Both the position numbers and the translations under genes were made by a program. From Escherichia phage vB_EcoM_VR7, in sequence record NC_014792.1: 64,000 nt of DNA, one strand, 5' to 3'. Position 1 is the first letter of the stretch; each line of letters opens with the position of its first letter. Shown piece by piece: positions 9,197 to 63,048 of this stretch. The notes under the pieces were generated by a model. That model did no database searches. It saw only the letters and a program-made list of their open reading frames with translations, and was not told where the DNA came from.

Positions 9197-9226
9197 ACCA
9201 TTATACAGCCATAAAATTAAAGCATT
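9197..9226 (-). promoter_or_regulatory. MotA-dependent middle promoter for uvsY
   Basis: Minus strand reads TGCTTTA, 12 nt, TATAAT, then GGTTCTAGACC. Confidence 0.55.
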
Positions 9227-27593: not shown

Positions 27594-27623
27594 ACCCATT
27601 ATAACATAAAATTTTTAAAGCAT
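27594..27623 (-). promoter_or_regulatory. MotA-dependent middle promoter
   Basis: Minus strand reads TGCTTTA, 12 nt, TATAAT, then GGGTCTAGGTCC. Confidence 0.5.
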
Positions 27624-44357: not shown

Positions 44358-44386
44358 TTATATTAGCATAAAATTTTTAAAGCAAT
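44358..44386 (-). promoter_or_regulatory. MotA-dependent middle promoter for rnh
   Basis: Minus strand reads TGCTTTA, 12 nt, TAATAT; GAGG RBS before the rnh ATG. Confidence 0.5.
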
Positions 44387-53922: not shown

Positions 53923-54576
53923 ATGGAACCAAAAGTAGGAATCTCAATTCCCGACCTACTTTTTGGACTTCTTGATAGAATTTTTAAAGATAATGCAACC
54001 GGGAAAGTTGTTTTTTCCCGGGTACTAGTTATTGTTCTATTATTTTTAATGGCGGTAATCTGGTATAAAGGTGATGCAATTTTAGATGCGTATAGGGATG
54101 CTTCATATGCCTCGTACACAGAAATGATAAGGCAAGACCAGGATAACAGATTTAAAATTGCAGCTATCGAGCAAATCCAGATAGTTCACTCATCAAGCGG
54201 AGCAGACTTTACAGCGATATATTCCTTTAGACCCACTAACCTTAACTACTTCGTGGATATGGTGGGGTATGAGGGGATATTACCTGAATCAGTTGACGAA
54301 AAAAATTTGGGTGGGTTTCCAATAGATAAGACTTCAGCGGAATATTTGGCGGGGGTTAATGGTAATTATTTTGAATCTGGTACGGAATCTGTATTCTTAC
54401 CAACAAAGAAAAAAAGCAGCTTCGCATATATGTTCAGCTGCCCATTCTTTAATTTGGAAAACGTTTATGCTGGCACGGTTTCGCTGTACTGGTATAAGCA
54501 AAAACCCGACCTTGGTTTTGATAGACTTTCTGCTATGTGTGGACAAGCAGGTCGTACGCTCGGGCGTACACGTTAG
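53923..54576 (+). CDS. t: holin T
   Basis: 217 aa; strong match to T4 holin (LLFGLLDRIFKDNATGKV, single TMD, large periplasmic domain). Confidence 0.9.
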   Translation: MEPKVGISIPDLLFGLLDRIFKDNATGKVVFSRVLVIVLLFLMAVIWYKGDAILDAYRDASYASYTEMIRQDQDNRFKIAAIEQIQIVHSSSGADFTAIYSFRPTNLNYFVDMVGYEGILPESVDEKNLGGFPIDKTSAEYLAGVNGNYFESGTESVFLPTKKKSSFAYMFSCPFFNLENVYAGTVSLYWYKQKPDLGFDRLSAMCGQAGRTLGRTR

Positions 54577-54848
54577 AATCCGGAGGTATACATCATCAGA
54601 TATCGGTGTATATCTTCGAATCCTTCGTTAAATTGTTCAATGATTTGTTCAATTTCATCTTCAGATAAACTTTTAAACAACTTGTTAAACGATACATTGT
54701 TTAACTCATTCCCATTCTCATTCCTCAATCCCAACTCATTCAAAAACGCGATAAACACATCACGCTTCATCGTAATATCTTCCCGGTCGGTTTTAATCAA
54801 AATAGATGTAACGGTAACAATTTCAGAAACGATTTCAAATTTAGTCAT
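54573..54848 (-). CDS. asiA: AsiA anti-sigma70 factor
   Basis: 91 aa; match to T4 AsiA (EIVTVTSILIK..REDI...R..FIAFLNE.G; C-terminal DEFNEGFE..YRYL.MYT). Confidence 0.85.
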   Translation of the reverse strand: MTKFEIVSEIVTVTSILIKTDREDITMKRDVFIAFLNELGLRNENGNELNNVSFNKLFKSLSEDEIEQIIEQFNEGFEDIHRYLMMYTSGF

Positions 54849-54906: not shown

Positions 54907-55071
54907 TTATTCCTCTGGGTTGTACACATGATTTTCCATGTGTACAGCATATTCCTGATACATATCTTCAATTGGTTCCTGGAACTTAAAATCAGCTCCA
55001 AGAAATTCCTCAAAGCAAGCCTGCTCGCGTGTACGCTGACCAGTGATGGTGTTCTCTAAGTTATGACTCAT
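54907..55071 (-). CDS. small acidic protein (54 aa), not in the ORF track
   Basis: MSHNLENTITGQRTREQACFEEFLGADFKFQEPIEDMYQEYAVHMENHVYNPEE; weak RBS; between asiA and motA. Confidence 0.3.
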   Translation of the reverse strand: MSHNLENTITGQRTREQACFEEFLGADFKFQEPIEDMYQEYAVHMENHVYNPEE

Positions 55072-55172
55072 AGCCTTTACCCTTATGTTTCTGTTTACGA
55101 GTTGACTCTTTAAAGTTTTTCTTCTTGTCCTTATGGACAGAAGCCTTATTGAAATCGTGCTTAGCTACTAGA

Positions 55173-55370
55173 TTATTCATAATGTGCAATTACCTCTCTT
55201 AAACATCCACCTGTAAGACTGAAACGCTTGGCTACCCCACACTCAATGATATGTTCTGAAAGCATATTCACATCAGTATAACCCAGCTCGACGATGAAGT
55301 ATTTTATAGTTTCCTTATCACGAGAATTTAAACTATTGAAATACTCTGATTTTGAATTAAGAGTCTTCAT
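55173..55370 (-). CDS. hypothetical protein
   Basis: 65 aa ORF. Confidence 0.4.
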   Translation of the reverse strand: MKTLNSKSEYFNSLNSRDKETIKYFIVELGYTDVNMLSEHIIECGVAKRFSLTGGCLREVIAHYE

Positions 55371-55632
55371 GTAATTTCCTTAATTGATATTCTAAAGAGC
55401 TAATAATTTCTTTATTAGTTGCTATATACATATCACGCAGGAAAGGCTTCAATCCTACCATGCTTTCATAAAATGTCTTAGAACTAATATCCTTTATATA
55501 TTCGTGGTCTAAAGCATCCCAGGCGGGTTGGTTAACATAAGTTCCCCAGTTATCTTCCATCATAGCATTCAGACGTTTGATATGATTAATATGACCTTCG
55601 ATTGCATCAATTTGGAGTTGTTTAAGGTTCAT
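55357..55632 (-). CDS. hypothetical protein
   Basis: 91 aa ORF, 1 nt start/stop overlap with the upstream ORF. Confidence 0.4.
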   Translation of the reverse strand: MNLKQLQIDAIEGHINHIKRLNAMMEDNWGTYVNQPAWDALDHEYIKDISSKTFYESMVGLKPFLRDMYIATNKEIISSLEYQLRKLHEDS

Positions 55633-56093
55633 TAGTAAAGGTCCTCTGAATAAAGTTCGTCTTCGCGACCGCCACGTTCAATACGTACCTGGCCTGCATA
55701 AGTAGCAATAATCATGGCTTCTTTACGAGTCCAATAATTGCTGTATTGGTCGATAAATCCTTGGTCGTCACCACATACCTGACATGAAACCACTTTGTCT
55801 TCAACTGCATCCAATACTGCAGCCATGTCTTTAGAATAATGACGAGCACCCGGAATAACGAGTGTTCCACCTTCCTTTAATTTAAAACGGTTCGCTGCCG
55901 AAACAATACGTCGTTGGAATTTCTGGTCATTACACCAGTACCCGAGCTCCCAACAGATTTCTGGGACTTCATCCAGGACATCTTGTTCTGTATATTCACC
56001 ACCATAAGAAGCTAATTTAGCAGCAAGACTTTCAGGAGTCTCACGTGATAGAGCCAGGTCTAATAGTTCAAGGCGTTCTTTGAAGGTTTTCAT
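55632..56093 (-). CDS. hypothetical protein (possible nucleotide-binding fold)
   Basis: About 153 aa from MKTFKERL; ATGA coupling with the upstream ORF; no confident family assignment. Confidence 0.45.
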
Positions 56094-56422
56094 TTGAACC
56101 AACCTTTAACACGTTGCCACAGACTTTTCTGTTGAGCTTTATTAACACCAATTGAGCGAATAACTGGTTGTGATTCCTGGTATTCTTTGTAGTCAGCTTT
56201 ATAGACTTCATATGCCGCTGGAACAAAGGCACCAATCGCCGCCATGAAGTTCTTGCGAATACCAAACGGAGCTGCTGCATCATCTTGGCGGTGGATAAGA
56301 TACTGACCAGCTTTGACCTTGACAATAGTTCCAAGGTAAGCGCCATGATACCAAACATCCCAACCCTCTTGAGTAGGTTCTACACAAGCACGCAAGTCAT
56401 TAACAATATTCAGCTTATTCAT
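56090..56422 (-). CDS. hypothetical protein
   Basis: 110 aa ORF. Confidence 0.45.
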
Positions 56423-56429
56423 AATTTCC

Positions 56430-57038
56430 TCACTTTAAGATGTTAATAACATGCTGAATGTTTTCAGTTGACATATGATTGTCAATGTAGGTATTCAATC
56501 CACCTACTTTAACGCTAAATCCCACGTCTGTAAACTGTTTTACTATCTTTTGTTCAGTATTATATGCATGCACGCGAATCTGACCATCACGTCGCACATC
56601 AATCTGTTTTAATGTCTTGACACGCTTGAACTTCACAATCAAATTACTGCGGTCTTCTGAAATGCTCTTAAAGTCAATACCAATGGACAACAATTGCTCT
56701 TTGATATATTCTGCAGTCGCTTCCATTTCATCAGTCACACCGCGTTTTGTTCTTGTCTTCTTTACTTCCAGAAGGTCAGGATTATTTTCATTTGCCCAAA
56801 GTTCAGCTGCATCCAGAATAAGGTCAACACCCTTTTCTGTAATCATCAAACCATCACCAGAAGCTTCAACATAGTTGTTATTCAACAATGTCTGTACGCT
56901 ATCAATTGATGTGTTCTGCTGGTCTAAAACAACCTCAGGACGAACAAAGTTGTTTTTGTATACAAACACCAGAGCATTAACATCAGTCTCGTGTAGAGCG
57001 TTCTGGGAGCATTTAACGATATAATTTAACTTGTTCAT
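56430..57038 (-). CDS. motA: MotA middle-transcription activator
   Basis: 202 aa; T4 motA position; partial motif match (E.SGDGL.IT..G); call is moderate. Confidence 0.65.
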   Translation of the reverse strand: MNKLNYIVKCSQNALHETDVNALVFVYKNNFVRPEVVLDQQNTSIDSVQTLLNNNYVEASGDGLMITEKGVDLILDAAELWANENNPDLLEVKKTRTKRGVTDEMEATAEYIKEQLLSIGIDFKSISEDRSNLIVKFKRVKTLKQIDVRRDGQIRVHAYNTEQKIVKQFTDVGFSVKVGGLNTYIDNHMSTENIQHVINILK

Positions 57039-57040
57039 AA

Positions 57041-57268
57041 TTATCCCTTGATGGATTTCATGTAATTTGATGCATATGATTGTACCACAGTACGCTTCAT
57101 ATGGGAAGTAGAAACAACAACATCAATCGCTTGTTTACGTTCTTCTTTAGAATTCGCCAGTTTGAACATGTCAAAGTAGTAATAGCAAGCTTCTTTGTTA
57201 GATTTGAATTTAGCGTTGATGTATTCTTGACCTTCATTCTGTTGTGCAGTAAACATTTTATTCTCCAA
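57041..57268 (-). CDS. hypothetical protein (motA.1 position)
   Basis: 75 aa; early promoter and RBS upstream. Confidence 0.45.
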   Translation of the reverse strand: MENKMFTAQQNEGQEYINAKFKSNKEACYYYFDMFKLANSKEERKQAIDVVVSTSHMKRTVVQSYASNYMKSIKG

Positions 57269-57348: not shown

Positions 57349-57372
57349 AAAAAAGGACCCCGAAGGGTCCTA
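57349..57372 (-). terminator. Rho-independent terminator downstream of gene 52
   Basis: GGACCCTTCGGGGTCC hairpin followed by TTTTTTATTTT on the minus strand. Confidence 0.65.
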
Positions 57373-62564: not shown

Positions 62565-63048
62565 TGTGTTCTTCCATATATTTTAATCGAGCTTCATTTG
62601 CTTCTTCTGGAGTTGCAAAAGCTCCGACTTGAGTTTGTTTTTTATTTCGCATAATAGTGGCTCGCCATGGTTTATTCAAAGCTCGTTTATCAAACGAGAC
62701 TCCTTTAAATCCAGACTTGTTGTTATTATACGGGCGCTTATTTAAAGCATTCTCACCTGGACTAACCCATCTGCAGTTATCGGGAGAGTACCCTTTATCG
62801 TTATCTGTTCGGTCAAGTTGATGTTTGTCAGTGGGTCGTGACCCCATATCTGTATAAAATCTTTCAAAATCATGCAGCCATTCATCGCAAACAGTGATAC
62901 CCCGCCCGCCATATCGAGAATAACTAATATGTGTTGGATTGCAACACCGAGCTTTCATGCCAATCCATACAATGTATTCAGGCGTGTGACCTAGCCCGTG
63001 GACAATACCACGAGCCGAGCCATCTTTAGCAATTGTTTGTTTAATCAT
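62557..63048 (-). CDS. HNH endonuclease with C-terminal AP2-type DNA-binding domain (homing endonuclease-like)
   Basis: 163 aa; HNH core (DRTDNDKGYSPDNCRWVSPGEN) then AP2-like segment (SGFKGVSFDKRALNKPWRATIMRNKKQTQVGAFATPEEA). Confidence 0.7.
   Translation of the reverse strand: MIKQTIAKDGSARGIVHGLGHTPEYIVWIGMKARCCNPTHISYSRYGGRGITVCDEWLHDFERFYTDMGSRPTDKHQLDRTDNDKGYSPDNCRWVSPGENALNKRPYNNNKSGFKGVSFDKRALNKPWRATIMRNKKQTQVGAFATPEEANEARLKYMEEHNV

Follow-up and report, generated by a model that had tools for sequence, protein, structure and literature searches.

Escherichia phage vB_EcoM_VR7 (NC_014792.1), a T4-like member of the genus Gaprivervirus, carries between the transcription regulator genes asiA and motA a block of four small genes, which proved to be orthologues of T4 arn.1 to arn.4. 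Analysis of this block in a 64,000-nucleotide (nt) stretch of the genome (the window; positions are counted from its first letter) showed, at the level of sequence, that residues 1-49 of the Arn.3 protein are homologous to the N-terminal part of CmdA, the antitoxin of the CmdTAC defence system. We tentatively propose that the block is an accessory counter-defence cassette in which Arn.3 would be a candidate antitoxin mimic directed against CmdT-type toxins. If Arn.3 does have this role, a conserved T4 orphan gene would gain a function, the natural resistance of two BASEL phages would have a molecular explanation, and there would be a further case of phages borrowing antitoxin parts, here against a recently described defence in which translation is blocked through ADP-ribosylation of mRNA.

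The original prediction, made from the letters of this DNA alone, had listed four open reading frames (ORFs) of 65, 91, about 153 and 110 amino acids (aa) as a block of unknown function. All four were present on the minus strand, and the features of the block were as follows.

56090-56422, minus: arn.4 orthologue, 110 aa, isoelectric point (pI) 9.4, Pfam PF26821 (label precomputed for relatives)
55632-56093, minus: arn.3 orthologue, 153 aa from ATG
55947-56093, minus: CmdA-like module, Arn.3 residues 1-49, two predicted helices (4-16 and 20-29) plus linker
55635-55922, minus: Arn.3 core, residues about 58-153, PF26092 (T4_Y16D; UniProt Y16D), from precomputed labels on all relatives
55357-55632, minus: arn.2 orthologue, 91 aa, phrog_1844
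55173-55370, minus: arn.1 orthologue, 65 aa, phrog_4452, full length

Similarity between the N-terminus of Arn.3 and the antitoxin CmdA

CmdTAC (PD-T4-9) is a toxin-antitoxin-chaperone system that aborts T-even infections. The toxin, CmdT, is an ADP-ribosyltransferase with mRNA as its target; CmdA acts as antitoxin and CmdC as a SecB-like chaperone. CmdA starts with a helix pair (PMC11618068) and has a disordered tail, the site of chaperone addiction, which ends in Ala-Ala, a ClpXP degron. When the arn proteins were searched with PADLOC, the sole match was that of Arn.3 residues 1-30 to positions 1-30 of the 77 in the model PD-T4-9_B (E = 6.9e-7). This match proved robust. The same model matched 24 of 106 members of the Arn.3 family, with a best E-value of 2.4e-10, and about 24 of the extracted family sequences carried the N-terminal module. 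In an alanine scan scored against PD-T4-9_B, 3-7 bits were lost at F4, R7, L11, L15, T19, E21 and S22/L23, and these sensitive positions were the ones that are invariant in the phage module.

A genuine cmdTAC operon (locus L146) was recovered from viral_contigs with a degenerate DNA pattern; it lies in a P2-like element beside a portal-like gene, and PADLOC recognised its CmdT (8e-92), its 77-aa CmdA (3.7e-35) and its CmdC (2e-58). Plasmids searched by tblastn with the N-terminus of Arn.3 gave no CmdA sequence, nor did E. coli genomes searched by blastn or phages searched with SecB as bait. The degenerate CmdA pattern applied to genome_contigs retrieved only an unrelated ABC permease family, in part because the serine code WSN in the pattern also admits threonine. 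The CmdA of L146 aligned with Arn.3 from the first methionine onward (CmdA 1-61 with Arn.3 1-49; 39% identity over 61 columns, E = 1e-9). Over the first 30 residues 16 were identical, the same positions were conserved and both proteins open with two helices. Thereafter they differ. CmdA has the chaperone-addiction tail and the Ala-Ala degron (the L146 protein ends in SEAA), whereas Arn.3 has neither and runs instead into the folded PF26092 domain, ending SEDLY. CmdA is encoded between CmdT and the SecB-like CmdC, and Arn.3, which unlike CmdA is phage-encoded, between arn.4 and arn.2, neither of which has a PADLOC match. Residues 1-49 are thus homologous to the N-terminal part of CmdA. In the papers searched there was no mention of a relationship between Arn.3 and CmdA, and none of a natural phage inhibitor of CmdTAC.

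The core domain of Arn.3

The remainder of Arn.3 was predicted as a folded domain with a local confidence score (pLDDT) of 92-98. In alignments the motifs RIVxAANR, GARH, QGFID, TRxEA, GQ and the C-terminal SEDLY were invariant; among distant members of the core family H85, G112, F113, R123 and L147 were still invariant and R84, Q111, D115, Q135, S149 and E150 nearly so. The protein had been described in the original prediction as having a glycine-rich, nucleotide-binding-like segment, a description that the alignments do not support: conservation is lacking at G77 and G78, the residue at G83 may be G, S, A or C, and among the glycines of that segment only G112 (of QGF) is invariant. Neither a Walker A motif (GxxxxGK[ST]) nor a GxGxxG motif occurs in Arn.3. 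The core looks like an enzyme or a ligand binder; it matched no known enzyme fold or family. Structural comparison of Arn.3 and Arn.4 with solved PDB representatives, anti-defence proteins included, gave no match, and the fold of Arn.3 matched domains within the 'large polyvalent' proteins of phages (E = 1.6e-3, 26% identity).

This core was found to be widespread in large lytic phages with no solved structural relative coming to light. An exhaustive search gave 714 representative clusters, mostly stand-alone proteins of 90-125 aa with a few C-terminal fusions, and tblastn found the core in 1578 phage records, among them T-even phages, Kuttervirus, Phapecoctavirus, phiKZ-like phages and Erwinia jumbo phages. 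Most of these clusters and records were without the CmdA-like module. In ten long proteins with a PF26092 fusion the N-terminal part matched no Pfam family, and the profile search gave no partner domain, PF26092 standing alone in the matches listed.

Module variants and sensitivity to CmdTAC

CmdTAC restricts all 12 BASEL T-even phages by 10^2 to 10^5, except Bas35 and Bas38, and T4 by at least 1000-fold. The N-termini of Arn.3 were taken from ten BASEL genomes and T4 (Bas44, Bas46, T2 and T6 were left out) and set beside these phenotypes; restriction is stated directly for T4, and for the other BASEL phages it was inferred, since Bas35 and Bas38 are named in the paper as the only ones to escape. 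The variants, with their identity to CmdA residues 1-30, were the following.

MNPF(I/V)NRLKMLNVPL, 10-11/30 identical: T4, Bas37, 39, 40, 41, 42, 43 and 45; restricted
MKTF(K/E)ERL, 15-17/30 identical: Bas35 and Bas38 (15/30); not restricted
MKTF(K/E)ERL, 17/30 identical: Bas36 (Paracelsus); restricted

The Arn.3 module of VR7 belongs to the CmdA-like type (16/30) and is nearly the same as that of Bas35; it begins MKTFKERL where that of T4 begins MNPFINRL. Escape was seen for two of three phages with the CmdA-like variant and for none of eight with the other (one-sided Fisher p = 0.055), which is a suggestive association. The modules of Bas38 and Bas36 differ sharply from that of Bas40 over almost identical cores, and the module has therefore been exchanged, or selected, on its own. 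It is conceivable, although on balance we think it unlikely, that allelic variation in this module of 45 residues decides whether T-even phages are killed by CmdTAC or escape from it. If that were the case it would explain the insensitivity of Bas35 and Bas38 and would predict that VR7 is insensitive as well.

Bas35 (WilhelmHis) was also found to have an additional 51-aa gene (MKTFKIVVEFYNGEG...; locus L154, 6841-6996, minus) between arn.3 and arn.4. This gene is absent from the other BASEL phages examined and is an alternative candidate for the cause of the insensitivity.

Antitoxin mimicry or shared ancestry

The mechanism that we envisage is that the CmdA-like helices of Arn.3 would bind CmdT-type toxins. 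Since Arn.3 has neither the addiction tail nor the Ala-Ala degron recognised by ClpXP, it could persist when CmdA is lost on infection and go on neutralising the toxin, acting as a chaperone-independent orphan antitoxin mimic. T4 Dmd counters RnlA and LsoA. Orphan antitoxin-like counter-defence genes against DarTG provide a precedent in T4-like phages. Dmd, TifA (against ToxIN), AdfB and DarG-like proteins (against DarTG) embody the same concept of a stand-alone antitoxin relative or mimic in a lytic phage, and the known phage antitoxin mimics include cases directed against ADP-ribosyltransferase toxins in T4-like phages. Unlike these, the candidate Arn.3 would hold only the toxin-proximal part of an antitoxin, fused to an unrelated and widespread domain.

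Several observations weigh against Arn.3 as an antitoxin mimic. For CmdA itself, toxin binding by the N-terminal helices is presumed from how such systems generally work. The association with escape is imperfect, because Bas36, with the most CmdA-like module of all (17/30), is restricted, and T4 carries the module, in its divergent variant, and yet is restricted too. The PF26092 core occurs far more widely than the module does, and Arn.3 may thus serve mainly a purpose that does not involve CmdT. For Arn.4, Arn.2 and Arn.1 the genomic context is the sole basis for a part in counter-defence. T4 escape mutants map to alt.-3 and not to arn.3 (PMC11618068), natural insensitivity could come from alleles of alt.-3 or gp23, and Arn.3 was not found in the supplementary tables of the CmdTAC paper, the immunoprecipitation-mass spectrometry data included.

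Much of this would be accommodated if the similarity to CmdA were one of ancestry only and Arn.3 worked through its core on something that has nothing to do with CmdTAC, an alternative that we think about as likely as mimicry, and less likely than not. The core might then, for instance, catalyse a reaction or bind a ligand in the metabolism of nucleotides or RNA, or act against another host target, and the N-terminal helices would do no more than pack on it or regulate it. As to the origin of the likeness, a 5' piece of a T-even arn.3 could have been captured and made into the P2-borne cmdA, or both proteins could share a generic two-helix module. This would agree with the core being the ancient and widespread part of the protein, mostly found without the module (714 clusters, 1578 records), with its enzyme-like invariant polar residues, with the restriction of T4 and Bas36 in spite of their modules and with the position of the T4 escape mutations in alt.-3, as well as with the neighbourhood of the gene elsewhere, among genes for topoisomerase, exonuclease, RNA ligase and thymidylate synthase. 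It accounts less readily for the sharp variation of the module over near-identical cores (Bas38 against Bas40), which looks like selection on the module, for the CmdA-like variant being present in both CmdTAC-insensitive BASEL phages, or for the coincidence of the conserved positions in the phage module and in CmdA; the failure of the core to match any known enzyme fold or family also speaks against it.

The arn genes of VR7 and T4

The four ORFs are more than chance reading frames, because dozens of T4-like phages carry orthologues of each and the ratio of nonsynonymous to synonymous substitution rates (dN/dS) against relatives was 0.07-0.27 for all four, where dS was not saturated. All four genes are thus under purifying selection. 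T4 likewise has arn.1 to arn.4 between motA and asiA, unchanged in order and orientation and with identical ATGA and TAATG junctions. Identity to the T4 proteins was 70% over 153 aa for Arn.3 (E = 1.5e-80), 75% over all 110 aa of an extended T4 frame for Arn.4, 67-70% for Arn.1 (67% over 64 aa) and 41% for Arn.2. The matches to PHROG families had E-values of 8e-40 (Arn.2, phrog_1844) and 2e-33 (Arn.1, phrog_4452), and 54 relatives of Arn.4 were all labelled PF26821. An upstream TTG, three codons before the ATG, would lengthen Arn.3 to 156 aa.

The block as described was already known, as a set of uncharacterised T4 orthologues, and a phage closely related to VR7 has been sequenced: the surrounding 3 kb are 95% identical to those of its closest relative, vB_EcoM_VR25, whose Arn.3 is 100% identical to that of VR7. 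Identity to Shigella phage SP18 over this stretch is about 90%. The statement that the function of the block is unknown stands, as does the absence of four well-characterized T4 orthologues of unrelated function, since T4 arn.1 to arn.4 are themselves uncharacterised. Papers up to June 2026 likewise assign them no function; the latest, a preprint of that month on phage T2, describes arn.1 to arn.4 as genes of unknown function and conjectures a part in counter-defence. In the CRISPRi-ART screen T4 arn.1 to arn.4 all scored 'Not Fit' on knock-down, and by these scores the genes are dispensable in the laboratory.

The neighbouring gene arn, which in T4 encodes an inhibitor of McrBC (an anti-restriction DNA mimic), is missing from VR7. 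In T4 and T2 it belongs to the same operon as arn.1 to arn.4, whose products often share its product name in annotation. No significant BLASTP match to T4 Arn was obtained for VR7 Arn.1, Arn.2, Arn.3 or Arn.4. We accordingly rejected the label 'anti-restriction nuclease' as a description of function; none of the four proteins resembles T4 Arn, and the label is not evidence of function because it was carried over from the gene names.

VR25 and VR7 differ in this otherwise 95% identical region by small gene-sized insertions or deletions. VR25 (L001) has a 93-aa Arn-like gene (1083-1364) between its DUF7230 and asiA.1-like ORFs, absent in VR7 (55061-55075), and a 59-aa gene (2730-2906) between arn.4 and motA that VR7 also lacks.

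One module or separate accessory genes

The original prediction had described the four ORFs as tightly coupled and suggested a co-translated module involved in host takeover. The coupling was confirmed by reading the junctions: arn.4 and arn.3 overlap by 4 nt (ATGA) and arn.3 and arn.2 by 1 nt (TAATG), to which is to be added a 14-nt overlap of arn.2 and arn.1 that had been missed. The idea of one machine fared less well when 79 loci encoding Arn.3 relatives were fetched, 40 from T4-like phages and 39 from others. All 40 T4-like loci had arn.4 and arn.3 adjacent to each other; arn.2 was usual, arn.1 and arn were variably present and arn.1 was absent from about half. In the 39 other loci the Arn.3 relative stood alone, with none of Arn.1, Arn.2 or Arn.4 nearby and no neighbour common to these loci. 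The genes also differ in their divergence. Compared with locus L017, arn.1 had a proportion of synonymous differences (pS) of 0.00 while dS for arn.3 was 1.6, and these adjacent genes therefore differ in history.

It would still be open to argue that the four proteins form a single co-translated module that takes part, alongside AsiA and MotA, in host takeover, through RNA polymerase binding for instance; the tight overlaps and the location between motA and asiA fit this, as do the constant adjacency of arn.4 and arn.3 in the T4-like loci and the early/middle expression of the genes in T2. We regard it as very unlikely. Overlapping starts are usual across the whole cluster, genes of unrelated function included, Arn.3 relatives occur in many phage families without the other three, arn.1 is so often absent and the genes have separate evolutionary histories. 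In addition, T4 arn.1 to arn.4 are dispensable, whereas transcription takeover factors matter, and no likeness to known RNA polymerase binders was seen in any arn protein. Counter-defence is favoured over host takeover, because the T4 neighbour arn is anti-restriction, the genes are dispensable and the Arn.3 N-terminus is homologous to CmdA. We infer that arn.1 to arn.4 are a cassette of accessory proteins that act and are exchanged separately, most likely in counter-defence, and not one multi-subunit machine. The earlier interpretation of the block is partly supported, in the existence, tight coupling and unknown function of the four genes, and not in the nucleotide-binding and single-module readings.

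Outside the T4-like phages, recurring neighbours of the Arn.3-like gene were seen in one lineage only (L064, 4200-4784; L029, L033, L034, L038 and L048), represented by phage contigs of about 142-153 kb and, for the sixth locus, a 10-kb fragment. There the gene lies about 1.2 kb upstream of a NADAR/YbiA-type gene (ADP-ribose-related) and about 2.7 kb downstream of a MazG-looking gene, both judged by eye.

Arn.4, Arn.2 and Arn.1

Arn.4, Arn.2 and Arn.1 were found only in T4-like loci; each is probably a small protein that binds host or defence proteins. The model of Arn.4 had an N-terminal helix and a four-stranded sheet followed by helices. None of the four arn proteins had a significant match in sequence searches of Pfam, NCBIfam and the PDB. 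A resemblance of Arn.4 to the TNF-like protein LIGHT (E = 0.06) was taken as chance, and a weak one of Arn.2 to AsiA (a bit score of 20, from a database of nine sequences) was not used.

A different role, in which one or more of the small arn proteins would target translation and Arn.2 would be a ribosome binder like RaiA/HPF, was suggested by the C-terminal helix of Arn.2 (LRDMYIATNKEIISSLEYQLRKL), which hhalign aligned with helix alpha-2 of RaiA at 50% identity over 26 columns and a probability of 55%. An Arn.2 profile run against the PDB gave RaiA at E = 0.11, and the NCBIfam RaiA model matched Arn.2 residues 16-88 at E = 0.13. However, that model matched just one of 13 members of the Arn.2 family and the Pfam ribosomal S30AE family none of the 13; what matches is one amphipathic helix and not the whole S30AE domain. 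A likeness of Arn.1 to bS18 was rejected as well (phmmer E = 0.16; probability 9% in profile comparison). We therefore consider a role in translation to be extremely improbable.

The surrounding gene cluster

The flanking genes had been named correctly in the original prediction. The block does not fill the whole interval between them, since two more small genes follow arn.1. The features around the block were as follows.

57354-57371, minus: strong intrinsic terminator-like hairpin, AGGACCCTTCGGGGTCCT then TTTTTATTTT, between gp52 and the arn-containing unit
57041-57268, minus: 75-aa ORF, phrog_17275, function unknown; first gene past the terminator
56430-57038, minus: motA, middle transcription activator (MotA_activ, E = 2e-12; MotCF, E = 2e-9)
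55061-55180, minus: DUF7230 ORF, 39 aa, strongly basic (pI about 10), Pfam DUF7230
54907-55071, minus: asiA.1-like ORF, 54 aa, 11-nt overlap with the DUF7230 ORF
54573-54848, minus: asiA, anti-sigma-70 factor (Pfam AsiA, E = 8e-21)

The hairpin is perfect (7 bp, GC-rich, with T-runs), has a terminator score on both strands and is probably the upstream limit of the arn-containing transcription unit. Downstream of it lie nine co-directional genes, in the order 75-aa ORF, motA, arn.4, arn.3, arn.2, arn.1, DUF7230 ORF, asiA.1-like ORF and asiA. The stop of the 75-aa ORF is 2 nt ahead of motA, that of motA 7 nt ahead of the arn.4 start, and the DUF7230 ORF overlaps the 3' end of arn.1 by 8 nt; asiA is the final gene of the cluster and is convergent with the holin gene t. 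No strict MotA-box middle promoter (TGCTTNA, 11-13 nt, TANNNT) was found within the arn block. With a terminator upstream and no such promoter inside, the nine genes look, from their layout, like one unit. In T2, arn.4 to arn are reported to form a single transcript, with the arn genes expressed early/middle.

Over the whole window the strict MotA-box pattern gave 12 matches, all on the minus strand, where 3.2 were expected (for example 9200-9224, 27598-27622, 44360-44384 and 62725-62749). The DUF7230 ORF is kept in 38 related loci and its T4 copy (L004, 1787-1900) is 87% identical; neither T4 nor the VR25 RefSeq record has an annotation for it.

Start codons and the ArcZ site

Comparison of the families gave two observations on start codons in T4, both of which touch the reading of ArcZ and RNase E control of the operon in the 2026 T2 preprint. 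The T4 and T2 annotations give arn.1 a length of 43 aa, truncated at the N-terminus relative to a family of 65-75 aa with the conserved sequence DYFNSLN...IK.FI.ELGY. Judged by this conservation, T4 arn.1 (L004, 1896-2087, minus) probably uses a TTG start overlapping the arn.2 end. If it does, the '70-nt intergenic region' of the preprint, with its GCAUU RNase E site, would be Arn.1 coding sequence (codons R-H-F), and the ArcZ site CCAGGGAAAU spans the TTG start region.

In VR7 the corresponding positions 55355-55385, at the 3' end of arn.2 and the start of arn.1, read UUAAGGAAAU in place of CCAGGGAAAU, so that the ArcZ site is not conserved; no GCAUU motif was found in VR7 at arn.2/arn.1, nor any spacer between the two genes. 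The duplex energy was calculated for the ArcZ seed only, energies with the entire 56-nt small RNA being meaningless, and was -9.9 kcal/mol for VR7, equal to the background median of the local transcript, against -23.0 kcal/mol for T4.

For arn.4, the T4 annotation gives 68 aa. The frame (L004, NC_000866, 2831-3157, minus) is open and conserved further, reaching 10 nt past the motA stop, and has a GAGGAA Shine-Dalgarno sequence. At the start position the BASEL T4-like phages and VR7 have ATG; because ATA replaces it in the reference T4 sequence, arn.4 there has either an AUA start or has lost its start codon.

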